A stretch of 64,000 nucleotides of DNA from an uncultured Gammaproteobacteria bacterium (GTDB lineage Bacteria; Patescibacteriota; Microgenomatia; CAZXEC01): assembly GCA_964639595.1 (NCBI GenBank), contig CAZXEC010000001.1, positions 254,498 to 318,497 on the forward strand, in the 5' to 3' direction. The stretch's first letter is position 1, and the number at the start of each line of letters is the position of its first letter. Below are positions 409 to 34,811 of this stretch, piece after piece. A program made the position numbers and the translations under genes. Under the pieces are notes generated by a model that was given only the letters and a program-made list of their open reading frames with translations, was not told the DNA's origin and ran no database searches.

Positions 409-1959
409 ATGGATAAAAAAGATTCATCTTCCAGTAATTTAAAATTTTTCCAATATTTAAGCGATGAGATGTTAAATCATAAGCTAATTTACCTCTTACT
501 GCTGATCACTTTTTACTTTGGCACTTGGGTGAGGACTGCTAATTTGGATAAGTTGCTGGGATTTTACTATGATCAGGGACGTGATTTTTTAACTGTGGCC
601 AAAATTCTGTCCGGCAAATTAACCCTGATCGGTCCCACTACCGGCATCGAAGGCGTTTTCCATGGGCCGCTTTATTATTATTTGCTGGCTCCCATGTTTG
701 CCATAACCGGCGGTGATCCGGCTCAAATGGCGACTATGATGGGAATTTTCAACAGCCTGGCAATTTTATTAATATTTATTGCCGGCAGTCTGTTTTTTAA
801 TAGGGCTTGCGGCTTGCTGGCAGCATTTATGTTTGCCATATCCTTAGAACTGGTCAATTTTTCCCGCTGGTTTTCCAATCCTTCTCCGCAAATGGTTTTT
901 ACGCTGCTGGCTCTAATTTCCTTATGGATGATAGCGCAGAAAAAACGTTGGGGCCTGCCGCTATTGGCATTTGCCGCCTCTTTTGGCTTCCAGTTTGAGG
1001 CGGTTTCTTTAATTACCATTATTCCTGCTTGTCTGGTTCTTTTTATCTGGCAAAGAAATATTTGGTTGTCATTTGATCGCAGGTCGCAAGTGCTGTCGGT
1101 TTTAATCATTTTAATAGGACTCTCTCCGTATATTCTTTTTGAATTAAGGCATAATTTTTTAATGACTAATGCGGCTGCCCAGCTTATTGCTGGCAATTCC
1201 AGTTTTAAATTAAATTTTGCCGATGTAATTTGGCAAAGGATAAATTTTTATCTGGAGGTTTATAATAATTTACTTATGCGCGACCGACCCATCACAATAT
1301 TCTTGCTAGTTGCCAGCTTTGTTATTGGCATTATCAATCTAAAGCGTCAGACACTATCAACCAACATTAAAATTTTGTTGATTTGGACAGCGTCGCCATT
1401 GGCTACACTGCTTTTTTATCATGGTAATTACGGTTATGTCTGGGGATATTATCTTTCGCCCACCCTGCCGTCGGTAATTTTATTAGTTTCGTTCTCTGCG
1501 TACTTTTTATGGCAAAATTATTGGTTGAAAATTGTAGTAGCGATTTTTTTCATTTTGTTCATTCGGGGCAACCAGCCGCTCTCGGCCAATTTCACCAGTC
1601 CAGATATATCCTATGGTCGTGAGACGATTGCTTTAGGCAATCAACTGCAAGCCATTGACTGGATTTATCAGGATGCAAAAGGCCAAGCCTTTAATGCTGA
1701 TGTTTATGTCCCTCCGGTTGTTCCGTATGCTTATGACTATCTAATTGGTTGGTATGGGCGGAAAAATTACCATCAAGAGCCCTTGGATAAGCAGGTTCAG
1801 CTCCTGTATACTCTCTATGAGGTTGATCCGCCACACCCAGAGAGGTTAGCAGCGTGGCTGTCACGTCAAAAAGGCATAGCCCCTGTTATTGTGAGGCAAG
1901 CTAGTTTTGGAGGGATTACTGTTGAGAGAAGACAACGCTTAATGATAAAGGATAAATGA
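409..1959 (+). CDS. Polytopic membrane protein, putative GT-C-fold glycosyltransferase
   Basis: 516 aa with about 12 predicted hydrophobic helices and aromatic-rich loops. It sits in an operon with a GT2 and a PMT-like gene. Confidence 0.5.
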   Translation: MDKKDSSSSNLKFFQYLSDEMLNHKLIYLLLLITFYFGTWVRTANLDKLLGFYYDQGRDFLTVAKILSGKLTLIGPTTGIEGVFHGPLYYYLLAPMFAITGGDPAQMATMMGIFNSLAILLIFIAGSLFFNRACGLLAAFMFAISLELVNFSRWFSNPSPQMVFTLLALISLWMIAQKKRWGLPLLAFAASFGFQFEAVSLITIIPACLVLFIWQRNIWLSFDRRSQVLSVLIILIGLSPYILFELRHNFLMTNAAAQLIAGNSSFKLNFADVIWQRINFYLEVYNNLLMRDRPITIFLLVASFVIGIINLKRQTLSTNIKILLIWTASPLATLLFYHGNYGYVWGYYLSPTLPSVILLVSFSAYFLWQNYWLKIVVAIFFILFIRGNQPLSANFTSPDISYGRETIALGNQLQAIDWIYQDAKGQAFNADVYVPPVVPYAYDYLIGWYGRKNYHQEPLDKQVQLLYTLYEVDPPHPERLAAWLSRQKGIAPVIVRQASFGGITVERRQRLMIKDK

Positions 1960-2732
1960 TTAATATGAACAACCAGAAGGATTTATCGATTGTTATTCCC
2001 AGCTACAACGAAAGCGAAAATTTGAAGAAGGGGAGCTTGGCAAAAATTGCCGATTACTTAGGAAATAAAAACCTAGCCTGGGAGGTGTTGATAATTGATG
2101 ACGGGTCTAGTGATAATAGTTGTGAATTAGTCGAGCAATTTACCAAGAACCATTCTAATTTCAAATTGGTTAAAAACCTGCATCAAGGTAAAGCAGCTAC
2201 AGTCTTATCTGGCCTGGGGATGGCGCAAGGGGAAATTGTTGTTTTTACAGATATGGATCAAGCCACACCAGTGAGTGAATTTGATAAGTTTTCCACTTAT
2301 TTTAATCAAGGTTATGATATTGTCATTGGATCAAGAGCTACCAACCGTCAGGGCGCGCCACTCTTAAGGCAAATTATGGCCACAGGATTTGCCATTATCA
2401 GAACAATGATTTTAGGCCTTAACCTGACTGATACTCAATGCGGCTTTAAGGCTTTTACCAACAAAGCAGCCCATACTATTTCAGAATTGCTGTTGTCTCG
2501 CTGGCAAAAAGTAATCAGAGGAGCGGCAGTTAATGCCGGTTTTGACGTGGAACTGCTATTTATGGCGCAAAAGCTAGGTTTCAAAATTGCCGAGGTGCCG
2601 GTTGCGTGGCATTATGTCGGGACCAAAAGAATCAGTCCCATTAAAGATTCAATTCAGGCCGTGGCAGACATGCTGCGAATAAAGATTGAAGATGTTCAAG
2701 GTGTTTATGATCAATATACTAGCAAAATATAA
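1956..2732 (+). CDS. GT2 glycosyltransferase (Dpm1/polyprenol-phosphate sugar synthase-like)
   Basis: N-terminal LSIVIPSYNESENL ... IIDDGSSDNS and a DxD-type motif (FTDMDQ). Its start overlaps the upstream stop by 4 nt. Confidence 0.85.
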   Translation: MINMNNQKDLSIVIPSYNESENLKKGSLAKIADYLGNKNLAWEVLIIDDGSSDNSCELVEQFTKNHSNFKLVKNLHQGKAATVLSGLGMAQGEIVVFTDMDQATPVSEFDKFSTYFNQGYDIVIGSRATNRQGAPLLRQIMATGFAIIRTMILGLNLTDTQCGFKAFTNKAAHTISELLLSRWQKVIRGAAVNAGFDVELLFMAQKLGFKIAEVPVAWHYVGTKRISPIKDSIQAVADMLRIKIEDVQGVYDQYTSKI

Positions 2733-4263
2733 GTACCCCTTGATTCTTGGTATGTTGCTGACCTTAGCATTTGGTGCAACCAGGCTAGCAAACTTAACCA
2801 TTCTGCCGGTTTTTGTCGATGAGGCAATTTATATCCGCTGGTCGCAAGTGATGCGTGATCCGGCCTGGAGATTTATACCTCTCACAGATGGTAAACAACC
2901 TCTTTTTATGTGGTTGTCATCACCATTGGTTAATCTCTGGTCTGATCCCTTGTTTGCCAGTCGCTTAATCTCTGTCATAGCCGGCTTTTTCGGTATGATC
3001 GGAATTTTCTTATTGAGCAGGGAATTATTTAGCAAAAAAATAGGTAGCATTGCCGCCTTTTTTTATGTTTTAGTGCCCTTTTTTGTGTTTTATGATCGCC
3101 TGGCAGTGCCAGATGGACTGTTGACAGTTTTGGGTATTTGGGCAATGTTTTTGTCTGTGGTTTTAGCAAGGACTGTCAGACTGGATGTGGCATTAATTTT
3201 GGGCATGGTTATAGGTGCTGCGACTCTAACTAAATCTCCCGGGTTTTTCTATTTATTGCTGGTTCCCAGCGGAATTCTGGTGTTTAATTTCTCCAGGCAG
3301 GCTTTACCAAAACTGGTTAAGTTGGCTCTTTTATGGATACTGGTGGCCCTAATGGCACTGGTGATTTATAACATTTTAAGACTGTCTCCTTATTTTTACC
3401 TGATTGGGCAAAGAACTTATGATTTTATATTGACTCCGGCGGAGTTTCTACAAAACGGCCCGTTCTGGTGGCTATTGTGCAGGGGGGCTTCATTTACCTG
3501 GGGCTGTGGCAGAATCTTTGAAAGCTTTGATTGGCTAGTATCATATTTTACTTGGCCAATATTTGCCGCGGCTTTTGCTGGCATGTTATTCTTATTTAGA
3601 AAAAACTGGAGAGTAGCCTTGTTTATTACTGCCTGGTCAACCTGTCCCCTGTTGGTAGAAAATGCTATCGCCAAAGGATTTACCGCCAGATATATTATTT
3701 TTGCCACCTTCCCTTTTCTGGTAACTGCAGCTTATTTTGCAGATCTGGCGATTGCCAAGCTTAAGCAAATTCATTATTTGGCGCCTTGGGGGTTGCTGGT
3801 ATTATTGATGCCGGCTGTAGTTTTTGATTGGTATCTTTTAACCAACCCCTCACAAGCTGCCATTCCTGCCAAAGAAAGAGAAGGCTATGTTGAAGAATGG
3901 TCAGCCGGCTATGGGATTGTGGAAATTGCTCAATTCTTGAAGGGAAAAGCCACAGATCAGCGGCCAATTTTGGTTGGTACAGAAGGAACTTTCGGCACTT
4001 TGCCGGATGGCCTGCAGATTTATGTTCGTGATATTCCCAATCTAACGGTGGTTGGCATGGGTCAGAATGCTGATATTTATAATATCCCCAAAGATCTAGT
4101 TGATTTTGCCAATCGCGGGAATTTGGCTTATCTGGTGGTCAATAAAACCAGACTGCATCCTGCCAATGACCCGCATCTTAAACTGATTGCCTCATATCCT
4201 AAACCGGCAGGTCGATCAAAGCAAGAAGAATTATTATTTTTTCAAATTATTAAGCTAAAATAA
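2686..4263 (+). CDS. PMT/ArnT-like (GT39-type) membrane glycosyltransferase
   Basis: A conserved DE motif in the first loop (VFVDEAIYIRW) and more than 10 TM helices. The true start is probably the downstream Met near 2751, since the annotated ORF start overlaps the GT2 gene. Confidence 0.7.
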   Translation: MKMFKVFMINILAKYKYPLILGMLLTLAFGATRLANLTILPVFVDEAIYIRWSQVMRDPAWRFIPLTDGKQPLFMWLSSPLVNLWSDPLFASRLISVIAGFFGMIGIFLLSRELFSKKIGSIAAFFYVLVPFFVFYDRLAVPDGLLTVLGIWAMFLSVVLARTVRLDVALILGMVIGAATLTKSPGFFYLLLVPSGILVFNFSRQALPKLVKLALLWILVALMALVIYNILRLSPYFYLIGQRTYDFILTPAEFLQNGPFWWLLCRGASFTWGCGRIFESFDWLVSYFTWPIFAAAFAGMLFLFRKNWRVALFITAWSTCPLLVENAIAKGFTARYIIFATFPFLVTAAYFADLAIAKLKQIHYLAPWGLLVLLMPAVVFDWYLLTNPSQAAIPAKEREGYVEEWSAGYGIVEIAQFLKGKATDQRPILVGTEGTFGTLPDGLQIYVRDIPNLTVVGMGQNADIYNIPKDLVDFANRGNLAYLVVNKTRLHPANDPHLKLIASYPKPAGRSKQEELLFFQIIKLK

Positions 4264-5957: not shown

Positions 5958-7380
5958 AATTGATTTTGCAACCATCAAAAAACGGACAGTATCTGGCATT
6001 TTTACCCTAACTTTTAGGAGAATTGCTCTTCAGGCCATCAGTTTTGCTTCCATAAATTTGATACTGGCGCGGATTTTGCCGGTGGAAACAATTGGGATTT
6101 TTAATATTGGCACTTCCTTAATTGCTTTTTTCGCGTTTTTTTCCGATATCGGGTTGGCGGCGTCTTTGATACAAAAAAAAGATAATATCACCCGCCAGGA
6201 TTTGACTACGACTTTTACCATCCAGCAGATTTTAATAGGTGTGATTACCCTAGTTATCATTGCCCTGGCTCCATTGCTGGCCCAAATTTATCAACTGGGT
6301 GATGATGGGGTATGGTTGATACGTGCTTTGTCAATTGGTTTTTTCCTATCATCTTTGAAAGTAGTGCCGGCAGTAGTATTGGAAAGAGAGTTAAAATTTA
6401 CTCCCCTGGTGACTGTAGAAATTGTCGAGACATTGATTTTTAATGCGATTCTGGTGACATTAGCCTTTTTAAATTATGGTTTGACAAGTTTTTCTTTAGC
6501 TACCATTGCTCGGGGTGTTTCCGGGACTTTATTGATTTATGTCATTGCCCCTTGGAAGGTGGGCTTAGGTATTTCTCGACAGTCAGCAACTTTGCTGTTA
6601 CATTTTGGTATTCCATATCAAGCCAATGCCTTGCTAGCTTTGGTAAAAGATCGGGTAGTACCCTTGGTGGTTGCTAAAATGGTTGGTGCAGTTGGTATTG
6701 GCTACATTACCTGGGCTCAAGCTCTGGCTTTTTTACCGTTGGAATTTATGAATATTATCATCCGGGTCACTTTTCCGACCTTTTCCCGGTTGCAGGACCA
6801 ACAAGACCAATTAAAAGGCGCCATTGAAAAATCTTTATATGTTACCACCTTGGTGCTGTATCCGACTCTGGCAGGAATTTTGGCATTGTCACCTAGCTTA
6901 GTTGGTCAGATAGTCTCTAGTAAATGGCAACCGGCCCTGCCCTTGATTTATTTATTTGCCTGCTCCACCTTTTGGGCATCAATTTCCACTACTTATACCA
7001 ACGCCCTAACTGCCATTGGCCATGTCAAAACAGTTTTGAAACTGATGGTGATGTGGACAGTCCTAACCTGGATTTTAACGCCTTTGTTAGTGTGGCAGTT
7101 TGGTTTTATCGGCGTGGCCTATACGGCGGCAGTCATCTCATTTTCCTCGGTGGTGACGATTGTGGTCCTGCATCGCCACGTCAAGATTGATTTATGGTCT
7201 AATATTAATAAACAACTGGTAGTCTCCTTACTGATGGGTGTTGCACTTTATATTCTATCTCCAGTGATGGTTGTAGATTGGCTGACTCTGATGGTGGCTG
7301 TTCTACTGGGCGGACTATTTTATGGCTTGTTGATGCTGATTTTTGACCGGAGCAGGCTATCTGCGCTTTTGAAACTGTAA
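5908..7380 (+). CDS. Wzx-like oligosaccharide/polysaccharide flippase (MOP superfamily)
   Basis: About 14 TM helices and the typical polysaccharide-biosynthesis-protein architecture. An alternative in-frame start at 5947 avoids overlap with the upstream gene. Confidence 0.7.
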   Translation: MLFLRNQNFWTKSMTGEIDFATIKKRTVSGIFTLTFRRIALQAISFASINLILARILPVETIGIFNIGTSLIAFFAFFSDIGLAASLIQKKDNITRQDLTTTFTIQQILIGVITLVIIALAPLLAQIYQLGDDGVWLIRALSIGFFLSSLKVVPAVVLERELKFTPLVTVEIVETLIFNAILVTLAFLNYGLTSFSLATIARGVSGTLLIYVIAPWKVGLGISRQSATLLLHFGIPYQANALLALVKDRVVPLVVAKMVGAVGIGYITWAQALAFLPLEFMNIIIRVTFPTFSRLQDQQDQLKGAIEKSLYVTTLVLYPTLAGILALSPSLVGQIVSSKWQPALPLIYLFACSTFWASISTTYTNALTAIGHVKTVLKLMVMWTVLTWILTPLLVWQFGFIGVAYTAAVISFSSVVTIVVLHRHVKIDLWSNINKQLVVSLLMGVALYILSPVMVVDWLTLMVAVLLGGLFYGLLMLIFDRSRLSALLKL

Positions 7381-10884: not shown

Positions 10885-11757
10885 ATGAAGATATCGGCAG
10901 TTGTAAATACCCTCAACGAAGAAAAAAATATTGCCAGGTGCTTGGAGTCGGTTAAATGGGCGGATGAGATTGTGGTAGTGGATGATGGTTCAACTGACAA
11001 GACGGTGGCAATTGCTCAAAAATACACCGATAAGATTTATCATCATCAAAGTGTCGGCTATGTGGAACCAGCTCGTGTTTTTGCAATGGATAAAGCCAGT
11101 TACGATTGGATTTTTTTAATTGATGCTGACGAGGAGGCGCCGAAAGAGTTGGCTGATATTCTTCAATCCACAGACTATGGTAAAGAAGACATCGCCCATG
11201 TGCAGATTCCCCGCAAAAATTTAATTTTTGGTCAATGGATCAAACATACTGGTTGGTGGCCCGATTATCAGGTGAGATTTTTCCAAAAGGGAACAGTCAT
11301 TTGGCCGAATGCTATTCATTTAAAACCACAAACATTTGGTAGAGAACTAAGACTTGAGGCCAGAGAAGACTTGGCAATAGTCAACCAGAATTATGATACA
11401 GTGTCCCAATTTATTAATCGGATGAATCGCTATACTGACATTGAGGCTCAAGAAAAAATTAATCAAGGGTATAAATTTGTTTGGCCAGATTTAATATTGA
11501 AACCAACAGAGGAATTTATGCGACGTTTTTTTGCCTGGGAAGGATACAAAGATGGATTACACGGATTGGCCTTATCACTGCTACAGGCCTTTTCATTATT
11601 AGTATTTTATATAAAAATTTGGGAAAAGCAAGGATTTAGACAAGAAGATATAGACATCAAACAAATTACTCAAGAGTCAAAACAAATCAACAGCCATTTC
11701 AATTATTGGACTAGACAAGCCTTGGGTAAGAAGAGTTGGTGGAAACGCTTCTTGTGA
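10885..11757 (+). CDS. GT2 glycosyltransferase (WaaE/KdtX-like)
   Basis: ISAVVNTLNEEKNI ... EIVVVDDGSTDKT and FLIDADEE. Paralogous to the genes at 14036 and 40553. Confidence 0.8.
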   Translation: MKISAVVNTLNEEKNIARCLESVKWADEIVVVDDGSTDKTVAIAQKYTDKIYHHQSVGYVEPARVFAMDKASYDWIFLIDADEEAPKELADILQSTDYGKEDIAHVQIPRKNLIFGQWIKHTGWWPDYQVRFFQKGTVIWPNAIHLKPQTFGRELRLEAREDLAIVNQNYDTVSQFINRMNRYTDIEAQEKINQGYKFVWPDLILKPTEEFMRRFFAWEGYKDGLHGLALSLLQAFSLLVFYIKIWEKQGFRQEDIDIKQITQESKQINSHFNYWTRQALGKKSWWKRFL

Positions 11758-12626
11758 AGATTATGTCAAAAGTCTTCGTGATTGTTCTAAATTTTAATTT
11801 AAAAAAAGATATTTTGGATTGCCTGTCTTCTCTGAACAAGTTGTCAGTTGTCAGTTGTCAGTTGTCAGTCGTTGTCGTCGACAATGCTTCTGCCGATGGT
11901 TCGCCACAGGCTATAAAAGAACAATTTCCCAAGGTGGCGCTAATAGAAAACAAGCAAAATTTAGGTTTTTCCGGCGGCAATAATGTGGGCATAAAATATG
12001 CTCTGGAACAGGGGGCAGATTTTGTTTTAATCTTAAATCCTGATACGGTAGTGGATGAGAATTTAGTAGACGAGTTGCAGGCAGCTACCCGGCGACATCA
12101 TAAGGTGGGAATTTTTGGCCCCAAGATTTATTTTTACATTCCCGATATCCAAATTTGGTATGCCGGCGGCCAGCTTGACTGGGATAATATCTTGGCGTCA
12201 CATGTGGGAGTAGACCAAATTGACAAAGGCCAGTTTAGCAAGGAGCAGGCAACTGATTTTGTATCAGGAGCTGCCATGTTTGTCAGACGTGAAGTATTTG
12301 ACAAAGTGGGTTTGTTCGATGAAAGGTATTTTTTGTATTATGAGGACTCGGATTTATGTATCAGAGCTCAACAAGCCGGTTTTGATCTCATTTTTGCCCC
12401 CCGAGCCTTTTTATGGCACAAGAATGCCGCCGCCACCGGCCTTGGTTCACCTTTGCAGGATTATTATATCACCAGAAACAGGTTGCTTTTTGCCCAGAAG
12501 TTTGCCCGTTTTCGGGCTCGTTTTGCTCTGTTTCGCGAAAGCCTAAAATTTTTATTTGGTACGAACTCCACCAAACGCCGAGCAGTGGTTGATTATTATT
12601 TGGGTAGATTTGGCAAAGGCATCTAA
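11736..12626 (+). CDS. GT2 glycosyltransferase (rhamnosyltransferase-like)
   Basis: VVVDNASADGS, GFSGGNN and YYEDSDLCIRA motifs. It contains the (GTTGTCA)x4 repeat. Confidence 0.85.
   Translation: MVETLLVKIMSKVFVIVLNFNLKKDILDCLSSLNKLSVVSCQLSVVVVDNASADGSPQAIKEQFPKVALIENKQNLGFSGGNNVGIKYALEQGADFVLILNPDTVVDENLVDELQAATRRHHKVGIFGPKIYFYIPDIQIWYAGGQLDWDNILASHVGVDQIDKGQFSKEQATDFVSGAAMFVRREVFDKVGLFDERYFLYYEDSDLCIRAQQAGFDLIFAPRAFLWHKNAAATGLGSPLQDYYITRNRLLFAQKFARFRARFALFRESLKFLFGTNSTKRRAVVDYYLGRFGKGI
11840..11867 (+). repeat. Perfect heptanucleotide tandem repeat (GTTGTCA)x4 inside a GT2 coding sequence
   Basis: Directly read: gttgtcagttgtcagttgtcagttgtca, followed by the degenerate gtcgttgtcgtcg. It encodes LSVVSCQLSVVVV. 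Confidence 0.9.
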
Positions 12627-24431: not shown

Positions 24432-25681
24432 TCAGATTAATGCTTGCCATTTTGTTTTTGGCGCTAATTTTCAGAATCGCGATTGCCGCTCCTTATTACA
24501 GCGGCGATGTGAACAATCACATTGCTTGGGGCAAAGGTATGGTGGAAGGCGGAACAGCTGATTTTTATTCCCGTCAATTTACCGGCCAGACCCCGCCTAA
24601 TTATCCACCTGTGCCGCTGTATCTGTTTGCCGCCTCTTATTGGAAGTATCAAAAAATCCAACAACTTACTACAACTACTAATATCTTACTACCAATTTTC
24701 CCGTCCAATCTGGTACCTTTTTTGGAAACTATCAACGCCCAGGCCGTGTTTTTGAAATTTCCGGCGATCTTTTTTGATCTGCTTTCCGGCTTATTTATCT
24801 TCAAAATTGCCGGTCTGCTCACCCACTCTCAAAAACTGCCTGTTGGCTTATCCAGCGCCTATCTTTTTAACCCGGCCGTTTTTTATAACAGCGCCAATTG
24901 GGGGCAGATTGAATCAATCCCGATTGCCCTGATGTTAGGTTCGGTTTATTATTTGATGAAAAATAAGCCGTATTATTTTACTCTTCTTGCCGTATTGTCA
25001 TTATTATCCAAACAAACAATAGTAGTGGTCATGCCGGCCTTATTTATTGCCTATGTTAAGAAATTTGGCACCAAAGTCTTGCTTTTTTCACTGGTAGTTG
25101 GTTTGGTTACCAGCTTCATATTATACTGGCCATTACTTGCCGAATCGTTGAGTTTTATACCCGTGTATATCAAACATCTCTCTGGAGTTTCCAATTATGT
25201 TTCCGACAATGCCTTTAATCTCTGGGGGCTCATCTTTGGCCCCAACTCCCACTTGCCTGATCAAAATTATTTTGGGATACTTACTCTTCAAATTTGGGGA
25301 TATGTCATATTTTCTATTTTTCTTTTGCCGGTTTTGTACGTATTATGGAAGAATTTTTCCTGGAGAAATTTACTTTTTGCTCTGACCATATTATCATTTT
25401 CCTCATTTTTATTTTTAACCAGGATTCATGAAAGGCATTTGGCATCTGTCTTACCGCTACTTTTACTTTTAACTATTTTTAATTCCAGATTAATGGTGGT
25501 TTATGCTGCTGTTTCCCTGGCGCATTTTATCAACCTTTATCATGGTTTTTGGCAGCCCAATCTGGAGGCGCTCAATTATTTTTTAAAGATTTTGTCAGGT
25601 GCTGGCATTACCGCTGCTGTTTTGATAGTTGCCTTTGCCATCATTTATCTGGAATTTTTCCGGACTAAGGGAAAGGTTTGA
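24428..25681 (+). CDS. Polytopic membrane protein, putative GT-C mannosyltransferase-like
   Basis: 417 aa, more than 10 TM helices. Family assignment is uncertain. Confidence 0.4.
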   Translation: MIRLMLAILFLALIFRIAIAAPYYSGDVNNHIAWGKGMVEGGTADFYSRQFTGQTPPNYPPVPLYLFAASYWKYQKIQQLTTTTNILLPIFPSNLVPFLETINAQAVFLKFPAIFFDLLSGLFIFKIAGLLTHSQKLPVGLSSAYLFNPAVFYNSANWGQIESIPIALMLGSVYYLMKNKPYYFTLLAVLSLLSKQTIVVVMPALFIAYVKKFGTKVLLFSLVVGLVTSFILYWPLLAESLSFIPVYIKHLSGVSNYVSDNAFNLWGLIFGPNSHLPDQNYFGILTLQIWGYVIFSIFLLPVLYVLWKNFSWRNLLFALTILSFSSFLFLTRIHERHLASVLPLLLLLTIFNSRLMVVYAAVSLAHFINLYHGFWQPNLEALNYFLKILSGAGITAAVLIVAFAIIYLEFFRTKGKV

Positions 25682-26487
25682 TGGAAATATCTATTATCAT
25701 TGTTTCTTACAATACCAAAGATAAGTTATCTAGCCTGTTGCGATCACTTACTGATGCGGGAATTGGACTGGACTGGCAGGTAATTGTGGTTGATAATGCC
25801 TCAACCGATGGCACAGTTAAGATGCTGGAGCAGCAATTTCCTGACGTCATCCTGGTCAAAAATAACCGGAATTTAGGCTTTGCCAGGGCTTGTAATATTG
25901 GTTTTGCCAAATCAAATGGCCGGTTCTTGTTTTTTTTGAATCCCGACACAGAAATAAAACCGCAGGTGGTGGAAAAATTAGTCGAATTTGCCAGTTATCA
26001 TGCTGATTGTGGCATAGTGGCGCCTCAACTATTAAATGGTGATGGCTCGCCTCAAGCTTCGGTCAGAAACTTGCCCACCCTGTGGCGGGCCATCCGTCAG
26101 TATTGGCTGGGCCAGTTGGGAGTTTATGATTTTTACCTGCCAGGCGGAGCTGCAGTATCGGTAGAGAGTGTGACCGGAGCGGCCATGCTCATTCACCGAA
26201 ATATTTTTGAAAAAGTTGGCGGTTTTGATGAGAGATATTTTATGTATTTTGAAGATTTAGAGTTATGCCGCCAAGTTATCTCCCTGGGCTATAAAATATA
26301 TTACTTACCGCAACTGACCATTGTTCACCACAAAGGCGCCAGCGCCCAAACCATAGGTGGTAAAGCATTCCAGATGCTTAAGATAAGTAGTAAAATATAT
26401 CATGGATGGGCGCAAGCGTTCTTGATTGATGTGGTGATTAGAAGTGGGCGAATATGCAAGAAATTATTAGGTCGAAATACAAAATAG
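25678..26487 (+). CDS. GT2 glycosyltransferase
   Basis: ISIIIVSYNTKDKL, VVDNASTDGT and YFEDLELC motifs. Confidence 0.85.
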   Translation: MMEISIIIVSYNTKDKLSSLLRSLTDAGIGLDWQVIVVDNASTDGTVKMLEQQFPDVILVKNNRNLGFARACNIGFAKSNGRFLFFLNPDTEIKPQVVEKLVEFASYHADCGIVAPQLLNGDGSPQASVRNLPTLWRAIRQYWLGQLGVYDFYLPGGAAVSVESVTGAAMLIHRNIFEKVGGFDERYFMYFEDLELCRQVISLGYKIYYLPQLTIVHHKGASAQTIGGKAFQMLKISSKIYHGWAQAFLIDVVIRSGRICKKLLGRNTK

Positions 26488-28157
26488 CGGTCGTCGTTAT
26501 CCTGGTTTTTGCCGCCTTTATCCGTTTTTTTGGCCTTGATAAAATTCCGCCGGAACTGTTTGGGGATGAGTTGGATGTTGGCTATCAGGCCTATTCCATC
26601 CTCACAACCGGCAAGGATTACCTGGGACATGCCTGGCCGCTTTATTTCCAATCATTTGCCGAAGCCCGGGCGCCGTTGTTTTTATATTCGGCTGTGCCGC
26701 CGGTGGCCGCATTTGGCTTAAACGAATTGGGAATTCGCGCTGCGGCGGCCTTTTTCGGGGTGGTCGGACTGGCGCTGTTGTATTTTGTGACCAAAAAGAT
26801 GTTTGCCGACAAGCCACCGGTGGCCATCCTGGCGCTTATTTTGGGGGCCATTTCTCCCTGGCACTTACAGTATTCCCGAGCCGCTTTTGAAGTCACGCTA
26901 CTGCTATCACTTTTCCTGGCAGGATTGCTGGCCTTCCTGCTGGCTTCTAAAAAACCTGTTTGGCTAATAGTTACTGCCATCACCTGGGCCTTGATGCCGT
27001 ATACTTATAACACGGCCAGTTTATTCTTACCGTTATTCTTACTTATCATAATAATCATCTATTTTGTGGAAATTAAAAGCTGGATCAAGCTGCCTGTTTT
27101 TTGGGCTGCGGCGGTGCTGTTTATGCTGTTGCTCTTGCCTATTATTGGCGAGCAATTTGCCAAAGGGGCAGAAAGATTTGGCAATATTAATATCACCACC
27201 GATGGTTCACAGCAGCTAGAGATTAATCTCAAAAGACAACAGGATGTCAACCTATCGTCGCAGCTGTCGGCCATTTACCACAATAAACCCTTGGCTTGGT
27301 CTTATCTGGCTGCTAAAAATTATGTTACTTCGCTGTCTCCCCAGTTTTTGTTTACCGAAGGCGATCCCAGGATGAGGCATAGTGTTGGTGAGATGGGGGA
27401 GTTTTATTGGTTTCAACTGCCGCTGCTCATTTTAGGTTTGATAACTTTGGCAAAAACAGATCTAAAAGTCAGAGTCTTGCTAATTGCCTGGATATTGCTG
27501 GCGCCGGTGCCTGCCGCCCTGACTCGTGATGGCGGGCATCACGCCACCCGCTTATTTTTGCTGCTGCCGCCCCTGTTGATTATTATGGCATTGGGAGCCA
27601 GCTTTCTTTTTGATTTAGCTAAGAAAAATCTGTCATGGAAGCTTATTGCTTACAGCTTATTGCTTACAGCTGCCTTGAACATAGCTTTTTTTGCCCACCG
27701 TTATTCCGTTCATTATCCCCAGGAATCATGGCGCTGGTGGCAGGTGGGATATAGAGAGGCTTTTGGCGAAATTAAAAAAGTAGCAGGCCAGTATGACCGG
27801 ATTGTCATTAATAATACTTACGAACCGGCCCTGATCCGCTTTTTAGTCTACAACCAATACGATCCGGCGCTTTTCCAGCAGCAATTTGTTCTCGACCAGT
27901 CAATCAAAAATGTCTTGCCGGGCATTGATGGATTTTCTTTGGGCAAATATTATTTTGGCACCTTATCCGGTGATATCAGGCAGAATGGCGGCTTTTCCAA
28001 AGCCATCGCTGATGGCATGCTTTATCTGGCTTCCCAAAGGGACGAAGTGCCTGGAGATCTTAATCTGTCTAAACAACCGCCGGATAATGTTAAAGTCTTG
28101 CAAAAAATCAACAATCCATTTGGTGAGGTGATCTTTTATTTGTTGACCAAAAGATAA
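26454..28157 (+). CDS. PMT/ArnT-like (GT39-type) membrane glycosyltransferase, paralog 1 of 5
   Basis: DELDVGYQAYSIL loop motif and ISPWH motif. Same architecture as 28158, 29807, 31536 and 38850. Confidence 0.7.
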   Translation: MQEIIRSKYKIAVVVILVFAAFIRFFGLDKIPPELFGDELDVGYQAYSILTTGKDYLGHAWPLYFQSFAEARAPLFLYSAVPPVAAFGLNELGIRAAAAFFGVVGLALLYFVTKKMFADKPPVAILALILGAISPWHLQYSRAAFEVTLLLSLFLAGLLAFLLASKKPVWLIVTAITWALMPYTYNTASLFLPLFLLIIIIIYFVEIKSWIKLPVFWAAAVLFMLLLLPIIGEQFAKGAERFGNINITTDGSQQLEINLKRQQDVNLSSQLSAIYHNKPLAWSYLAAKNYVTSLSPQFLFTEGDPRMRHSVGEMGEFYWFQLPLLILGLITLAKTDLKVRVLLIAWILLAPVPAALTRDGGHHATRLFLLLPPLLIIMALGASFLFDLAKKNLSWKLIAYSLLLTAALNIAFFAHRYSVHYPQESWRWWQVGYREAFGEIKKVAGQYDRIVINNTYEPALIRFLVYNQYDPALFQQQFVLDQSIKNVLPGIDGFSLGKYYFGTLSGDIRQNGGFSKAIADGMLYLASQRDEVPGDLNLSKQPPDNVKVLQKINNPFGEVIFYLLTKR

Positions 28158-29810
28158 ATGCCTAAAACATACCTAATATTAATTTTGGTTTTGGCGGCAG
28201 TCTTGAGACTGTCTTTCTTGGGACAATTTCCCGCCGGCTTTTCAGCGGATGAGGCCAATTTCGGCTATACTGCCTATTCAATTTTAAAAACCGGACATGA
28301 CGAGTGGGGAGAGCCGTTGCCTGTTTTCCCCAGGACTTTTGGTGATTTTAAGTCGCCCATTTATATCTACTTAACAGTTCCGGCAATTGCCATTTTCGGC
28401 CTCACAGAATTTGCGGTGCGCCTGCCGGCCGCATTGCTGGGAATATTGTCAGTTGTAATTGTCTATTTTCTGGTTGGAGTTTTATTTAAAGATAATAAAA
28501 GTCAACTGTCAACTGTTAACTGTCAACTGTTGGCCAGTTTCTTGCTGGCCATCTCCCCCTGGCATTGGCCCTTATCCCGGGTGGGCATTGAGACTTCTTT
28601 AATTTCTTTTTTTACTTCGCTGGTTCTTTACAGTTTTATCAAAGCCCAAGCAAACGCCAGATGGTTGGTTGCGGCTCTGGCAGTCGCCTCGTTGGGAGTT
28701 TATTCCACCAATTCCGCCAAATTATTTTTGCCATTGATATCGGCTTTCATGTTAGCGTTTGGCTGGAAGCATTATTGGGCCAATAAAAAAATCCTTTTGA
28801 CCGGTTTGGTTGTATCAGCAGCAATCCTCTTGCCGGCCATCATTCACAGTTCGGCTTTTTCCAGGCGGGCTGCCGATGTATCAATTTTTAATCCGACTGC
28901 CGGCTGGGAAGAGGTGTCCAAAAGACAATTTGAAAGCAACCTGCCCAGAGCCCTGGAGAGAATCTTTACCAATAAATTAACCTATACCCTGGGTGAAGTT
29001 TTCAAAAATTATGTGGGCTATTATTCGCCGCAGTTTTTGTTTACCAACGGCCCGTCCGAGCCGACTTACGGCATGATTCCGGGCCGGGGAGTCTTATATA
29101 TTTTTGAACTGCCGCTGGTCGTTTTGGGCTGGGTATTTTTGTTTGTTGGCAAGCATAAATATCGCTATCTGCTCTTGTTTTGGCTGCTTAGTGCTGCTTT
29201 GCCGGCCGCCCTGTCCAAAACAGCCGAGCATGCCAGTCGGGCAGCCACCTTCCTGCCGTTATGGTCGGTAATTTCTGCTTACGGTTTTTATGAAATTTGG
29301 CAGAGATGGCAGCGCTTGAGATCCTCACGTCTGCTTCAGGCAGCCCTGACACTGGTGCTGGTGTTTTCTGTTGCTTCTTTTGCCAACGACTATTTTTTCC
29401 ATGCTCCCAAAAGATTGGCCCGGTTTATGCATTATGGCGCCAAAGAAACAGTGGCATATTTAAAATCTCAAGAAGCCGCCTACCGCTTGATTATCATGGG
29501 CCAGCCATTTTCCGAAGCCCAAGTGTTTACGGCTTTTTATCAGCCGATTGAGCCGAGAGAATATCAGAAATATGCGCCGCAATTATTAAAATACGAGCAG
29601 GGCGGTCGAACTTTTTTGGACCAGTTGCCAGTTTATACGATCGGCAAGTATGAATATCGGGGTCTTAACTGGAATGATGACAAGACCCTCAAAGGAATGT
29701 TGCTGGTGGGCAAAGCGGCTGATTTTCCGGAAAAAGTTAATGCCCAAAAAATTATTTATGATCCGGCTGGTGAGCCGCTTTATAAAATTGTTGATCCGGA
29801 AAAGTTATGA
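28158..29810 (+). CDS. PMT/ArnT-like membrane glycosyltransferase, paralog 2
   Basis: DEANFGYTAYSIL and ISPWHW motifs. It carries the (GTCAACT)x4 insert. Confidence 0.7.
   Translation: MPKTYLILILVLAAVLRLSFLGQFPAGFSADEANFGYTAYSILKTGHDEWGEPLPVFPRTFGDFKSPIYIYLTVPAIAIFGLTEFAVRLPAALLGILSVVIVYFLVGVLFKDNKSQLSTVNCQLLASFLLAISPWHWPLSRVGIETSLISFFTSLVLYSFIKAQANARWLVAALAVASLGVYSTNSAKLFLPLISAFMLAFGWKHYWANKKILLTGLVVSAAILLPAIIHSSAFSRRAADVSIFNPTAGWEEVSKRQFESNLPRALERIFTNKLTYTLGEVFKNYVGYYSPQFLFTNGPSEPTYGMIPGRGVLYIFELPLVVLGWVFLFVGKHKYRYLLLFWLLSAALPAALSKTAEHASRAATFLPLWSVISAYGFYEIWQRWQRLRSSRLLQAALTLVLVFSVASFANDYFFHAPKRLARFMHYGAKETVAYLKSQEAAYRLIIMGQPFSEAQVFTAFYQPIEPREYQKYAPQLLKYEQGGRTFLDQLPVYTIGKYEYRGLNWNDDKTLKGMLLVGKAADFPEKVNAQKIIYDPAGEPLYKIVDPEKL
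28501..28528 (+). repeat. Heptanucleotide tandem repeat (GTCAACT)x4 with one C>T variant, inside the paralog-2 coding sequence
   Basis: Directly read: gtcaactgtcaactgttaactgtcaact. It encodes SQLSTVNCQ, an insertion relative to paralogs 1 and 3. Confidence 0.85.
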
Positions 29811-31462
29811 TCAAAAAAATTATCTTAATACTGGTAATTGTTCTGGCTGCCCTGCTGCGTTTCTGGCAGCTGTCCGATTACCCGCCGCATGCCAATTGGG
29901 ACGAGGCTTCCCTGGGGTATAACGCCTATTCAATTTTAACTACCGGACGTGACGAGTGGGGGCAGTTTTTGCCTTTGACCTTTCGGGCTTTTGGCGATTA
30001 CAAATTGCCCGGTTATATCTACACTTCCGTGCCGTTTGTGGCCGCTTTTGGCTTAAACGAATTTTCCATCCGTTTTGCCTCGGCTTTTTTTGGCACACTG
30101 ACAGTCCTGCTGGTCTTTTTGTTAGCCAGGCTTTTGACCCGGAAATATTCTCTGGCAACAATTGCGGCCTTCTTGCTGGCCATTTCTCCCTGGCATGTCT
30201 TTTTATCCCGGATTGCCCTGGAAGCCAATCTGGCCCTGTTTTTCCTGGTCTTGGGAATTTTCCTTTTTGTCAAATTTATTACACAGTTTGAGAACAGGAT
30301 AGCACCCCAGCTTATTTTGCTTATCGCTTGCCCCTTGTCCCTTGTTGCTGCTTTATATACTTACAACAGCGCCAGAGTGGTGGTACCATTGTTGGTTTTA
30401 TTACTGGCTGCCAATTATTACTCCCTGCTGAAAAAATTAAAAAAACAGTTGGTACTGATGCTGGTACTTTTGGTGGTTTTATCTGTGCCGGCTTTTTCTC
30501 TGGCCATCAAGCAGGATTCCAGCGCCCGCTATCGTTGGACTGCTATTTTAGACGAGGGGGCAACCAACTTCATCAATGAATCGCGCCGGACCTCTGCCTA
30601 CCCCACACCCCTCAAAGAGCTTGTTTATAACAAAATCACTTATACCCTGCCAAGAGTAGTGGCTGGGTATCTGTCGCATTTTAGCCCGGACTTTTTATAT
30701 TTTAAGGGCGGCAGTAATTTTCAATTTAATATTCCCGGGTTTGGATTGTTTTACCCTCTGGAAATGCCGTTTCTGGTTTTGGGGGTGATGGTGGCTTTCT
30801 GGCAAAAAAGCCCCTGGAGATGGCTGCTTATAGGTTGGATGTTGACCGGCCCCATTCCGGCTGCCATTACCCGTGATGCGCCTCATGCTCTGCGGTCGCT
30901 TTTTATGATGCCCGCCCCGCAGATTTTAGAAGCCTTTGGCCTGTTGTGGTTTTTGGATTCTTTGAAAAAGCCGGTCTTGGAAAGAGCCCTGGCTGTTGGC
31001 TTTGGACTGATTTTTGTGGTCGCCAGTTTTTTCTATTGGCAACTTTATACCAATCTTTACACCAGAGATTATTCCTGGTCCTGGCAATACGGTTATAAAC
31101 AAGCCATTGCTTATGTTGAAAAAAACCAGGACAAATATCAACAGATTATCGTGACCAAAAAATACGGGGAGCCGCATATTTTCCTGTTGTTTTACACTCA
31201 CTATCCGCCGGACCAGTATAGAAACGATCCGCAGCTGAAACGTTACTTTCAAACCGATTGGTACTGGGTAGATAGTTTTTATAAATATCAATTCATCAAT
31301 GACTGGGATATCAAACAAAAGGGGAGAGAAATTCAGATTAAAAAGGGCGGCCAACCAACTCTGCTTGTTGCCAGCCCCGGCAATTATCCGGTTGATGCCA
31401 AATTGGTGGAGAGTATCTATTTCCTGGACGGCAAAAAAGCCTTTGATCTGGTGGAGTTGTAG
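29807..31462 (+). CDS. PMT/ArnT-like membrane glycosyltransferase, paralog 3
   Basis: DEASLGYNAYSIL and ISPWHVF motifs. Confidence 0.7.
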   Translation: MIKKIILILVIVLAALLRFWQLSDYPPHANWDEASLGYNAYSILTTGRDEWGQFLPLTFRAFGDYKLPGYIYTSVPFVAAFGLNEFSIRFASAFFGTLTVLLVFLLARLLTRKYSLATIAAFLLAISPWHVFLSRIALEANLALFFLVLGIFLFVKFITQFENRIAPQLILLIACPLSLVAALYTYNSARVVVPLLVLLLAANYYSLLKKLKKQLVLMLVLLVVLSVPAFSLAIKQDSSARYRWTAILDEGATNFINESRRTSAYPTPLKELVYNKITYTLPRVVAGYLSHFSPDFLYFKGGSNFQFNIPGFGLFYPLEMPFLVLGVMVAFWQKSPWRWLLIGWMLTGPIPAAITRDAPHALRSLFMMPAPQILEAFGLLWFLDSLKKPVLERALAVGFGLIFVVASFFYWQLYTNLYTRDYSWSWQYGYKQAIAYVEKNQDKYQQIIVTKKYGEPHIFLLFYTHYPPDQYRNDPQLKRYFQTDWYWVDSFYKYQFINDWDIKQKGREIQIKKGGQPTLLVASPGNYPVDAKLVESIYFLDGKKAFDLVEL

Positions 31463-31535: not shown

Positions 31536-33263
31536 ATGACGAGCAAAATATTATTTGCAACTATTTTATTGATTGCCTTTGTGTTGCGGTTCTGGCAACT
31601 GGGCCAGTCTCCCAGCCTGTATTGGGACGAGCCGGCCATCGGCTACAATGCCTATTCCATTCTGACCACCGGCCGTGACGAGTATGGCAATGTCTTCCCC
31701 TTCACCTTCCGCTCATTTGATGACTATAAAGCTCCCGGCTATATTTATCTGACAGTCCCGTCTGTTGCTATTTTTGGCCTCACAGAATTTGCCGTTCGCT
31801 TCCCCTCGGCCCTGCTGGGAGTGTTAACCGTGGCGCTAGTTTATTTCTTAGTGGGAGAGCTACTTAAATTAGGTCGCAGTCAGCAGTCCAGCAGTCAGCG
31901 GTTTGCTGTTTGCTGTCAGCTGTTATCTATGGCCTCGCTGGCCATCTCCCCCTGGCACATCCATGTTTCTCGGATTGGCTTTGAAGCCAACGCCGCCGTA
32001 TTTTTCCTGACTCTGGGCATATTTCTATTCGTCAAGTTTATTGACGAATCCAAGAGTCAAGCCCCGCGAAGTCCGTCGGCTGACGGACGAAGTAGGGCTA
32101 CGTCTACCTTCTTGCTTATCGCTTTCCCCTTGCCCCTTATCGCTTCTTTATATACTTATCACAGCTCCAGATTATTAATACCGCTTCTTCTTACGGTATA
32201 TTTGATATTTTTCTGGAAAAAGTTCAATAAACAACTTCTGGTTAAGTTGGCGCTGGTGGTGTTAGTTTTATTAATCCCGCTTGCTCTTGTGATGCTGCGT
32301 CCGGAAACTCAAAACAGGGTGATTTGGTCCAGTCTTTTTTCCTACCAGCGGCCACCTGAAGAAATTAACCGGTTGGCTCAAATTGATCAGGCCCAAAGGC
32401 AAGATTTATCTTTTGGCCTATTGCATTCGGAGCCGGAATATTTTACCAAGGGTTTCCTGTCGCGCATGACCAATCATCTCTCGCCGATATTTTTATTCCT
32501 GAAAGGCGATGATAATCAGCGGTTGGGATTTGGCACCGTCGGTATTTATTATCTGTTTGAACTGCCGTTTTTTATACTGGGTGTCGTCTTTTTAACAAAG
32601 CATAAAACCACGGCTGTAATTTTATTACCTTGGTTTTTATTGGGAATTTTGCCGGCGGCACTGACCCGCGACCAAACTAACCTGCTCCGATCCCTCAACG
32701 CTTATGTGGCGGGAAATATCATCATCGGTTTGGGCGCGGCTTCGTTTTACCAGTACCTAACAGCCGGAAAAGTATTGGTCAGATCAGTAATTTTTATTCC
32801 CATGGCCGGTCTGATCTTGTGGAATGTGGGGTTTTTCCTGGATAATTATTTCGTCCATTACGCCAACAGAACCGCCCCATATTGGCAATATGGCTATAAG
32901 CAGGTAGTATCCAAGGTTTCAGCTTTGCAAGATAAATATGACAAGATTTACGTCTCCACCGACTACGGCCAGCCTTATATTTATTTCTTGTTTTACCAAA
33001 AATATCCGCCGGCCAAATATCAGCCGCAAGCCAGGCTTGTCAAAGACCCCCACAGCGTTGATGTGGGTGAAGGTGCCGGATATGATAAATTTGAGTTTCG
33101 CAAACTTTACTGGCCGGCTGATCGGGGTTTGAGAAAGAGTTTGTTTGTCGGCTCGCCGGAACAGCTGCCGGAAAAAGACATTGACCCCAAAGAGGCCCGC
33201 ATCATTGACCGTGTGTATTTCCCCAACGGCCCGGAGGCCTTTAGAATAGTGGAGACGTTATAA
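31536..33263 (+). CDS. PMT/ArnT-like membrane glycosyltransferase, paralog 4
   Basis: DEPAIGYNAYSIL and ISPWHIH motifs. It contains two low-complexity inserts (31877-31920 and 32065-32095). Confidence 0.7.
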   Translation: MTSKILFATILLIAFVLRFWQLGQSPSLYWDEPAIGYNAYSILTTGRDEYGNVFPFTFRSFDDYKAPGYIYLTVPSVAIFGLTEFAVRFPSALLGVLTVALVYFLVGELLKLGRSQQSSSQRFAVCCQLLSMASLAISPWHIHVSRIGFEANAAVFFLTLGIFLFVKFIDESKSQAPRSPSADGRSRATSTFLLIAFPLPLIASLYTYHSSRLLIPLLLTVYLIFFWKKFNKQLLVKLALVVLVLLIPLALVMLRPETQNRVIWSSLFSYQRPPEEINRLAQIDQAQRQDLSFGLLHSEPEYFTKGFLSRMTNHLSPIFLFLKGDDNQRLGFGTVGIYYLFELPFFILGVVFLTKHKTTAVILLPWFLLGILPAALTRDQTNLLRSLNAYVAGNIIIGLGAASFYQYLTAGKVLVRSVIFIPMAGLILWNVGFFLDNYFVHYANRTAPYWQYGYKQVVSKVSALQDKYDKIYVSTDYGQPYIYFLFYQKYPPAKYQPQARLVKDPHSVDVGEGAGYDKFEFRKLYWPADRGLRKSLFVGSPEQLPEKDIDPKEARIIDRVYFPNGPEAFRIVETL

Positions 33264-34244: not shown

Positions 34245-34262
34245 AAGAGAAACTAATAGACA

Positions 34263-34811
34263 GTTGCATTCCTTAATTCTTCTTAAGAGGTTCTGCAGGC
34301 TGTTTATACAAATCGAGTTCTATCTCCATACTTAGTTGCATTCCTTAATTCTTCTTAAGAGGTTCTGCAGGGCGTCAAAACGAGCTGGTTAAGTTGAAGT
34401 CTTAACGGTTGCATTCCTTAATTCTTCTTAAGAGGTTCTGCAGGCAAAAAGGGACGCATAACTGCATCCCGTAATTTAAGTTGCATTCCTTAATTCTTCT
34501 TAAGAGGTTCTGCAGGTTCTGATATATAATAGTTAAAAGAAGCCCGAAGTTGAAGTTGCATTCCTTAATTCTTCTTAAGAGGTTCTGCAGGTTCTAATAA
34601 TAACTGCTTAAACCCTCGTTTACTTCCAAAGTTGCATTCCTTAATTCTTCTTAAGAGGTTCTGCAGGTTAAATGCAGCTATGAAATATCATGGAGAATTT
34701 GGTTGCATTCCTTAATTCTTCTTAAGAGGTTCTGCAGGGGTGATGGCACCGCCAAAACAGGTGTTGAAGATATAGTTGCATTCCTTAATTCTTCTTAAGA
34801 GGTTCTGCAGG
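34263..34811 (-). CRISPR. CRISPR array of 8 identical 37-bp repeats (plus strand GTTGCATTCCTTAATTCTTCTTAAGAGGTTCTGCAGG) and 7 spacers of 34-39 bp
   Basis: Repeats start at 34263, 34335, 34408, 34480, 34555, 34631, 34702 and 34775. An internal CTTAA/TTAAG stem is present. The minus-strand transcription call is inferred from the cas gene orientation and from the repeat reverse complement ending in AAGGAATGCAAC (see findings). Confidence 0.95.

Follow-up and report, generated by a model that had tools for sequence, protein, structure and literature searches.

Tandem repeats of non-triplet units cause reversible frameshifts by slipped-strand mispairing in bacterial surface-glycosylation genes, and the loci concerned are termed contingency loci. 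In cyanobacteria, heptanucleotide repeats form families of their own, the short tandemly repeated repetitive (STRR) sequences reportedly described by Mazel et al. in 1990; these are mostly intergenic, of unknown function, and found in heterocystous species. Repeat DNA may also be translated, as in the Rickettsia palindromic elements, which yield in-frame insertions of repeat-derived peptides. Here, we consider two heptanucleotide arrays in a 64-kb stretch of contig CAZXEC010000001.1 (hereafter the window), from an uncultured bacterium assigned to Candidatus Daviesbacteria, within the Microgenomates of the Candidate Phyla Radiation (CPR). One lies in a family 2 glycosyltransferase (GT2) gene and the other in the second of four tandem PMT_2/PMT paralogs, and a large glycosylation cluster is the setting of both. 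We lean, with confidence a little above even, towards reading them as slippage-born microsatellites that are kept in frame at permissive glycosyltransferase sites, with no demonstrated switch.

Intragenic heptanucleotides of Haemophilus influenzae include (AACAACC)8-13 in the open reading frame (ORF) of a TonB-dependent receptor and (AATTTTG)14 in hmw1A; the heptanucleotide switches of this species contain 6-38 units, and the intragenic ones 6-14 (PMC2651432). The PhasomeIt cut-off for long units is at least 5 copies (PMC6321876), one study lists heptamer repeats from at least 3 units upward, and STRR sequences have been used for fingerprinting (PMC5088731). The window arrays resemble the simple sequence repeat (SSR) glycosyltransferase switches of Haemophilus, Neisseria and Campylobacter, in that a non-triplet unit lies in the 5' part of the ORF of a surface-structure gene, a change of one unit shifts the frame and, in silico, abolishes the product, and several such genes occur in one glycosylation cluster. 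Unlike these switches, which typically have 6 to more than 30 copies, they contain only 4.4 (GT2) and 4.3 (paralog 2), outside the empirically hypermutable range; they are situated in a fixed-length segment of a folded GT-A domain or in a membrane-protein loop; and no length polymorphism or OFF allele was seen in the assemblies compared, the arrays being known here from the sequence of an uncultured CPR bacterium.

With the cyanobacterial STRR families, the window arrays share a preference for 7-nt units and, possibly, a few heptamer families that recur over many loci and lineages. In contrast to the STRR, all window arrays are intragenic, in frame and short, and are limited to permissive protein segments, in a host from the Microgenomates (Candidatus Daviesbacteria) and not a heterocystous cyanobacterium. 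Finally, as with Rickettsia palindromic elements or loop indels produced by slippage, repeat DNA is translated within a conserved protein and tolerated in loops (7 aa in paralog 2), although the window arrays have neither palindromic structure nor mobile-element features, and the GT2 array replaces sequence.

Two heptanucleotide arrays in a glycosylation cluster

The GT2 array is a perfect heptanucleotide microsatellite, (AGTTGTC)x4.4 or (GTTGTCA)x4 followed by GT, at 11839-11869 of the plus strand (Tandem Repeats Finder, TRF: period 7, 100% matches). The sequence-only reading had noted a perfect (GTTGTCA)x4 at 11840-11867 inside a GT2 gene, and the DNA reads exactly so; it is the sole perfect repeat of the 64 kb with at least 3 copies and a unit of at least 5 nt. 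The ORF spans 11736-12626 (+) and matches PF00535 (7.8e-17), PF13641 (2.6e-17) and PF13632 in Pfam, but the likelier start is the ATG at 11763, giving a gene of 287 aa (11763-12626, +), as in the NCBI protein, with the array at codons 26-36. The assignment to GT2 agrees with these Pfam models, with a Rossmann-like N-terminal beta-alpha-beta arrangement and with the VVDNxSxD motif, present as VVVVDNASADGS, and NCBI lists the homolog P0001, through which and whose cluster members the source was traced, as 'glycosyltransferase family 2 protein [Candidatus Daviesbacteria bacterium]'; exact look-ups of the window GT2 protein itself, in two start variants, gave no record. In an AlphaFold2 (AF2) model of the protein (predicted local distance difference test, pLDDT, 91.9), residues 2-10 and 32-41 form strands and residues 14-25 a helix. 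The array, which encodes K26(3rd base)-L-S-V-V-S-C-Q-L-S-V36, covers the alpha1-beta2 linker, which follows helix 14-25, and the first half of beta2 (32-41), the strand that runs into the VVDN nucleotide-binding motif. For the peptide LSVVSCQLS under the codon usage of the window, codons as periodic as these are expected with P = 5e-6, so that the periodicity of the DNA is no by-product of the peptide. We found no significant hairpin in the RNA around the array (z = -0.55), nor one in the DNA, and a promoter scan gave no promoter-like site at the array.

The four tandem PMT_2/PMT paralogs, about 30% identical to each other, lie at 26454-28157 (paralog 1, +; PF13231), 28158-29810 (paralog 2, +; PF13231, 2.1e-12), 29807-31462 (paralog 3) and 31536-33263 (paralog 4, +; PF02366 and PF13231). 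Paralog 2 is a GT39-like, GT-C membrane glycosyltransferase, as judged from its PMT_2 Pfam match and from the ADEA and AISPWH motifs conserved in alignments. Its array, (GTCAACT)x4.3 at 28501-28530 (+; TRF: period 7, 91% matches), had been presented as (GTCAACT)x4 at 28501-28528 inside this gene; the location stands, but the repeat is imperfect, the third unit being GTTAACT. The array encodes S-Q-L-S-T-V-N-C-Q-L at approximately codons 115-124, in the loop immediately before AISPWH, and it amounts to a net insert of 21 nt (7 aa). Exactly these 7 aa are missing both from an 85%-identical ortholog (P0122/L003), which belongs to the relative that also has the closest available GT2 (see below), and from 10 more distant homologs aligned with paralog 2, indicating that the array is a lineage-specific gain of three units.

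Related repeats were found in the neighbouring paralogs. Paralog 4 contains a composite heptad array (GCAGTCA GCAGTCCA GCAGTCA GCGGTTT GCTGTTT GCTGTCA GCTGT; 31876-31924, +, with TRF rows at 31876-31899 and 31901-31924), which in the paralog alignment forms a 12-aa insert in the same loop before AISPWH as the paralog 2 repeat, whereas paralogs 1 and 3 lack a loop insert. Paralog 1 instead has a perfect 14-nt (2 x 7) repeat of 2.3 copies at 27640-27671 (+; TRF), at aa ~395-405, a second hot spot where other homologs have octanucleotide-coded segments (see below).

The paralog 2 region folds better than shuffled sequences (z = -2.94), and the strong stem is a downstream stem-loop predicted in the coding-strand fold within the LASFLLA codons (GGCCAG...CUGGCC); in that fold the array itself forms no more than a weak stem, though it self-pairs in the antisense fold. 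Read antisense, the array is a run of TTGACA-like hexamers, and a promoter-like match lies inside it at 28492-28519 (-; TTAACA, 16 nt spacer, TATTAT; 10/12). This match is probably due to chance, 2 having been found in the region against 0.5 expected.

A preference for 7-nt periods extends through the window. We counted 5 near-repeats at lag 7, against 0.33 +/- 0.54 in block shuffles, with no excess at lags 4-6 and none at lags 8-12; the additional lag-7 cases are located in the PMT paralogs, and related units are found in GT2, paralog 2 and paralog 4 within the 64 kb of this genome. The sequence-only reading had also drawn attention to a reverse-complement relation between the two main units, GTCAACT giving GTTGACA on reversal and rotation, one mismatch from GTTGTCA. 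This is arithmetically true but trivial, CAGTTG being the reverse complement of CAACTG, and we rejected it as a meaningful relation; by our own arithmetic, the chance of a match with no more than 1 mismatch, when 14 combinations of rotation and strand are compared, is p ~0.02. On the coding strand, both arrays read C-Q-L-S-x-V-x.

Gain or loss of one unit was expected to truncate the GT2 after about 45 aa and paralog 2 after about 120 aa, and our in-silico products bear out the truncation of both. Removal of one unit from the GT2 array leaves 48 aa and addition of one leaves 75 aa; for paralog 2, addition gives 122 aa and removal 145 aa. Over changes of one or two units in either direction, the predicted GT2 products range from 48 to 75 aa and those of paralog 2 from 115 to 152 aa, and changes of three units stay in frame.

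Related arrays at the same sites of homologous enzymes

The heptamer arrays are real and do not stand alone: in distant Microgenomates orthologs, arrays recur at the GT2 site of the window, the alpha1-beta2 linker ahead of VVDN. The closest available relative, a syntenic Logan contig (SRR22387912_39741) with an 86%-identical GT2 protein, has a segment of the same length at this site (KLSTATYNLSTIVVDN), encoded by a degenerate heptad only (CTGTCCA CTGCAAC CTATAAC CTGTCAA CTATCGT), and this stretch is much more diverged than its flanks. Several orthologs of 50-55% identity have the same kind of peptide at the same site, where QLSVVSCQLSV recurs. For the distant heptamer arrays, the DNA was read in three further cases. 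Within a group of orthologs of 51-53% identity, one (L161) has a perfect (TCAGTTG)x4.9, with the unit as in the window, and another (L134, Microgenomates, GCA_900206355.1) a perfect (TTGTCAA)x4.9 at the same site; (TTGTCAG)x4 occupies the equivalent structural position in a different GT2 (L143, from a JGI metagenome), and the ortholog L162 has a degenerate array at the GT2 site. L134 has three perfect heptamer arrays within 1.5 kb, in two adjacent GT2 genes: (TTGTCAA)x4.9 at 3072-3105 and (AAATTCA)x4.7 at 3136-3168 are in the same gene, and (ATTGGAA)x4.4 at 1675-1705 is in its neighbour.

We extended the comparison to proteins by searching for segments of at least 8 aa that can be read exactly as a perfect tandem heptamer translated in three frames. 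Such segments were present in 11 of the 120 best GT2 homologs, against 0.005 in shuffles, and they fell at two hot spots, aa 24-37 and aa 46-60. The units at the first site, given here in a common register, are CAGTTGT, CAATTGT, AAATTAC, GAATTAC, AGGTTAC and GAGTTAC, and lie single-nucleotide steps apart. For P0036, P0053, P0017 and the other matches made at the protein level, the heptamer origin rests on this exact three-frame readability only. Identity runs of at least 4 residues gave the same period, with 10 cases at lag 7 and none at lags 3-6, 8-10, 12 or 13.

The two 4-residue blocks that lie 7 aa apart in the GT2 site also co-vary, with a mean of 1.5 against 0.97 +/- 0.06 when blocks were dealt among proteins, a difference somewhat inflated by the relatedness of the sequences, although many different block pairs contribute to it (KLQI/KLQI, RLQV/RLQV, ELRI/ELRI, QLSV/QLSV and KLST/NLST). 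In 25 of 88 proteins, at least three of the four positions are identical between the blocks. Thus the units change in concert, and they do so in a segment of fixed length, which does not depend on the presence of an array. At this site, the L and V/I positions are conserved, and the array swaps the aromatic residue of the closest orthologs (Y to C). As a control family, 120 homologs of peptidase M24 contained no heptamer-readable segment; because these homologs are mostly from outside the CPR, this gauges the rate of false positives, and not a mutational habit of the clade.

The PMT family showed a comparable pattern. Heptamer-readable segments were found in five of 120 homologs (0.1-0.17 in shuffles), each of them in the loop that precedes SPWH, with the units CAACTGT, AAATTGG (twice), TTGTCTC and TCACCAA. 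The length of this loop has its mode at 39 aa (61/120), with secondary peaks at 46 (+7) and 50. The unit AAATTGG, or ATTGGAA as in L134, also encodes the KLEIGNWKLEI loop inserts of P0136 and P0186. No matches to units of 2, 4 or 5 nt were found in the PMT homologs. Octamer-readable segments were found in 14 of the 120, against 0.5 in shuffles, and 13 of these 14 lie at aa 393-432, a hydrophobic segment that may be a transmembrane helix; for example, ILLSCYLAILL can be read as (ATCTTGCT)n. Octamer-readable homologs at aa ~393-432 include P0136, P0141, P0151, P0163, P0177, P0180, P0181, P0186, P0191, P0206, P0225 and P0240.

Proposed slippage, possible switching and alternative origins

In the reading that we favour, replication slippage, possibly with transient misalignment, would create the arrays and keep them homogeneous; we infer this process from the comparisons above. 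Selection would keep the arrays in frame, and selection on frame and length together may pin the GT2 array at ~4.4-4.9 units, so that it fills the alpha1-beta2 linker and the start of beta2 with the length of the segment unchanged. The paralog 2 array is a recent loop insert of exactly three units. A mutational habit of the whole clade, acting on segments that tolerate change, might place related but different units at the same sites in other Microgenomates lineages. The arrays make the genes frameshift-prone, with a switching rate that is probably low at ~4.4 copies.

The alleles in hand are uniform and ON, that is, in frame. The two deposited assemblies have identical in-frame arrays at both repeats, and the Logan assemblies of SRR12113383, SRR12113384 and SRR12113424 are 99.99-100% identical to the window over paralogs 1-4, arrays included, with identical paralog 2 protein and DNA in all three runs. 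The comparison of copy number among strains that the sequence-only reading had proposed therefore revealed no variation, and no OFF allele, in the assemblies available (two deposited, and three Logan sets for paralog 2). A search of JGI metagenomes anchored in the flanks of the GT2 array, with 1-9 units allowed between them, gave no match, this species being outside that collection. All 16 heptamer-readable homologs, GT2 and PMT together, are full-length. The suggestion that these glycosyltransferases are phase-variable holds in part: the repeats are non-triplet repeats in glycosyltransferase ORFs, a change of one or two units truncates the products, and the comparisons point to dynamics of the slippage type, but neither a change in copy number nor an out-of-frame allele was seen, and 4.4 copies is below the cut-off of 5.

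Logan contigs built at k=31 break at the GT2 array: those of SRR12113383 and SRR4343435 end at 11868, and those of SRR12113383 and SRR12113420 start at 11840, leaving out exactly the pure-repeat 31-mer 11839-11869 in three runs. The perfect 32-nt repeat at 27640 assembles through in Logan contigs, hence tract length alone is not the cause of the breaks, and a 31-nt tract contains no repeated 30-mer, so that a population with 4 copies only should assemble straight through. The breaks thus indicate tracts of at least 32 nt of this heptamer in those samples. We considered the breaks as a proxy for heterogeneity among reads and dropped them, since the tracts are not assignable to this locus and the heptamer is common in other organisms; accordingly, we treat the breaks as uninformative. 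Logan k=31 contigs of the same population also end at 14930 (common to two runs), 14379, 12907, 25214-26227 and 31657. They break every 2-9 kb, a pattern that points to low coverage or to heterogeneity between strains, and not to the repeats.

The heptamer is widespread. Exact (GTTGTCA)x4 was found in at least 120 DNA stretches from GTDB species-representative genomes that span many phyla. The arrays have 4-19 copies and lie for the most part in short open stretches; among the matches listed (L014-L133) were Cyanobacteria, Planctomycetota, Acidobacteriota, Chloroflexota and Bacteroidota, and also Chromatiaceae. GTTGTCA arrays occur in genomes of Microcoleus, Calothrix, Dolichospermum and Anabaena, and a contig of the CPR lineage Levybacteria (L120:2635-2755) ends in an array of at least 17 copies, which lies immediately 5' of a gene for DNA-alkylation repair (PF08713). 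In addition, (TTGTCAA)x3-4 is translated in frame as QLSIVNCQL in the Pfam-confirmed housekeeping proteins ValRS, UvrA and RecJ, and in a helicase-like ORF assigned by eye (sites L140:~2630-2680 (-), L141:9819-9839, L151:~6545-6565 (-) and L148:~1551-1578 (-), the last being the helicase-like case). These contigs have a GC content of 0.47-0.66, above that of the window. An array of this sort is consequently not in itself the mark of a contingency gene. In metagenome contigs from JGI and ENA (L137, L139, L150, L154, L156, L157, L159 and L160), (TTGTCAR)n arrays are followed within ~10-30 nt by an inverted ((Y)TGACAA)n, forming hairpins that often lie right after a stop codon; these intergenic hairpins look like a heptamer-based family of REP-like (repetitive extragenic palindromic) or terminator-like elements. 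Where assemblies of one metagenome locus could be compared, they agreed in copy number, at 3 units.

The main rival of our reading is that the arrays are true contingency loci, maintained by second-order selection as reversible ON/OFF switches of surface glycans through slipped-strand mispairing, for example for phage evasion or changed host attachment in an episymbiotic CPR bacterium. We consider this possible, if doubtful. It would account for non-triplet units within the first 9-22% of glycosylation ORFs, for perfect arrays at one site in divergent orthologs whose units are single-nucleotide steps apart and whose half-repeats co-vary, and for several repeats per glycosylation cluster; the stepwise gain of 3 units in paralog 2 must have crossed out-of-frame copy numbers, the k=31 breaks fit coexisting longer tracts, and intragenic heptanucleotide switches are known in H. 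influenzae (PMC2651432). However, there are about 4.4-4.9 copies wherever DNA was read, below the cut-off and far below the 6-14 of known examples; the GT2 array is confined to a fixed-length segment of a folded domain, whereas known switches are usually in length-tolerant regions; the assemblies compared yielded neither a copy-number variant nor an OFF allele, the SSR-type homologs are all intact, and the metagenome scan, in a collection that lacks this species, had no match. The contig breaks are explicable by the same heptamer in other organisms, and its presence, in frame in essential genes and also in intergenic hairpins, indicates that arrays of this kind arise without a contingency role. 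A low-copy form of the idea, in which ongoing slippage keeps long-lived 7-nt and 8-nt arrays pure at fixed permissive GT2 and PMT sites, arrays and units evolve in concert, and the arrays toggle surface glycosylation throughout the Microgenomates, strikes us, taken as a whole, as rather unlikely. Several observations do weigh against the reading that we favour. At one site, arrays have stayed perfect in lineages whose synonymous divergence is saturated, which neutral decay alone would hardly explain and which selection for mutability would produce; the repeats cluster in surface-glycosylation genes, as in the four tandem PMT paralogs and the three L134 arrays, resembling contingency sets; the M24 control is taxonomically different, and so does not separate specificity for glycosyltransferases from a genome-wide habit; and the k=31 breaks could mean coexisting alleles of 5 or more copies. 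Phase variation is mechanistically possible, and gains in plausibility from the fact that pure arrays have persisted in glycosylation genes, though no instance of switching was seen in the assemblies compared.

Other origins for the arrays are less probable. A small, heptamer-based palindromic element, inserting in frame in the manner of the Rickettsia elements instead of arising by local slippage, would fit the hairpins after stop codons in many unrelated metagenome contigs, the helicase-like ORF, in which the array has a spacer and an inverted partial copy as in insertions of that type, the distribution of exact (GTTGTCA)x4 over many phyla, and the status of the paralog 2 array as an insertion relative to orthologs. 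We nonetheless think it improbable, as the GT2 array is no insertion and has neither a change of length nor a significant fold, the stem of the inserted paralog 2 array is weak, units at the same site differ by point changes between lineages, fitting evolution in situ, and other heptamers lie nearby in L134 (ATTGGAA and AAATTCA). It is more improbable still that the periodicity is a by-product of selection for a functionally required peptide (LSVVSCQLSV), or the result of chance or of an assembly artefact. The recurrence of QLSVVSCQLSV in distant orthologs, and the conservation of the L and V/I positions, would agree with selection on the peptide, yet the codon periodicity exceeds what the peptide imposes (P = 5e-6), the peptides differ between lineages while each remains an exact heptamer reading, and the aromatic residue of the closest orthologs has been replaced. 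An artefact fits poorly with an array that fits within a read, has the same sequence in two assemblies and flanks Logan contigs, and chance is excluded by the sole perfect repeat of the window and by its lag-7 excess.

Setting in the window and meaning for the Microgenomates

The window differs at 3 positions over 6,864 nt from JACQJB010000015.1 of GCA_016198195.1 (Candidatus Daviesbacteria), and proteins in a second NCBI assembly match window proteins exactly. Its GC content is roughly 0.32-0.47. Several further repeats were noted. A 20-nt repeat of 1.9 copies (GCCCTTTTTTATGTTTTAGT) lies at 3055-3092 in a PMT_2-like gene (2686-4263), and is kept in the 86%-related genome (L002:1269-1306), unlike the heptamer arrays, which are not conserved there. 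A 72-nt tandem repeat of 6.5 copies (71% matches) at 34262-34738 marks the edge of a low-GC stretch (GC 0.32-0.38, 34-38 kb) that has minus-strand genes, and the Logan contigs L004 and L005 end at the start of this repeat. A 23-nt repeat of 1.9 copies at 42191-42254 overlaps an (AGGGATA)x4.7 (73%) at the 3' end of a GT1 gene (41205-42338), a 19-nt repeat of 1.9 copies lies at 43025-43060, and 17-nt repeats lie at 58684-58957, inside an ORF of 1213 aa (55507-59148).

That non-triplet repeats lie within genes, and that they may act in phase variation, is well known, and what is new here is the clade, the CPR. Our literature searches found no report of family-wide translated heptamer or octamer arrays at fixed sites, nor of a protein-level readability test for such arrays, a test that offers a simple way of detecting hidden non-triplet repeats from protein sequences. 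Independently of any switching, ~9% of the GT2 subfamily and ~4% of the PMT_2 relatives hold literal three-frame readings of heptamer arrays at the same sites, and it appears that the turnover of microsatellites has repeatedly altered the sequence of linkers, loops and presumed transmembrane helices in these enzymes. If real, a low-copy contingency system of this kind would be the first proposal of phase variation in the Candidate Phyla Radiation, and an unusual case of it, as protein structure would fix the length of an array that is translated inside a folded domain. Switching of the arrays, if it takes place, would be the first evidence of surface-glycan diversification through hypermutable repeats in ultra-small episymbiotic CPR bacteria, and would bear on the attachment of these bacteria to their hosts and on their escape from phages.

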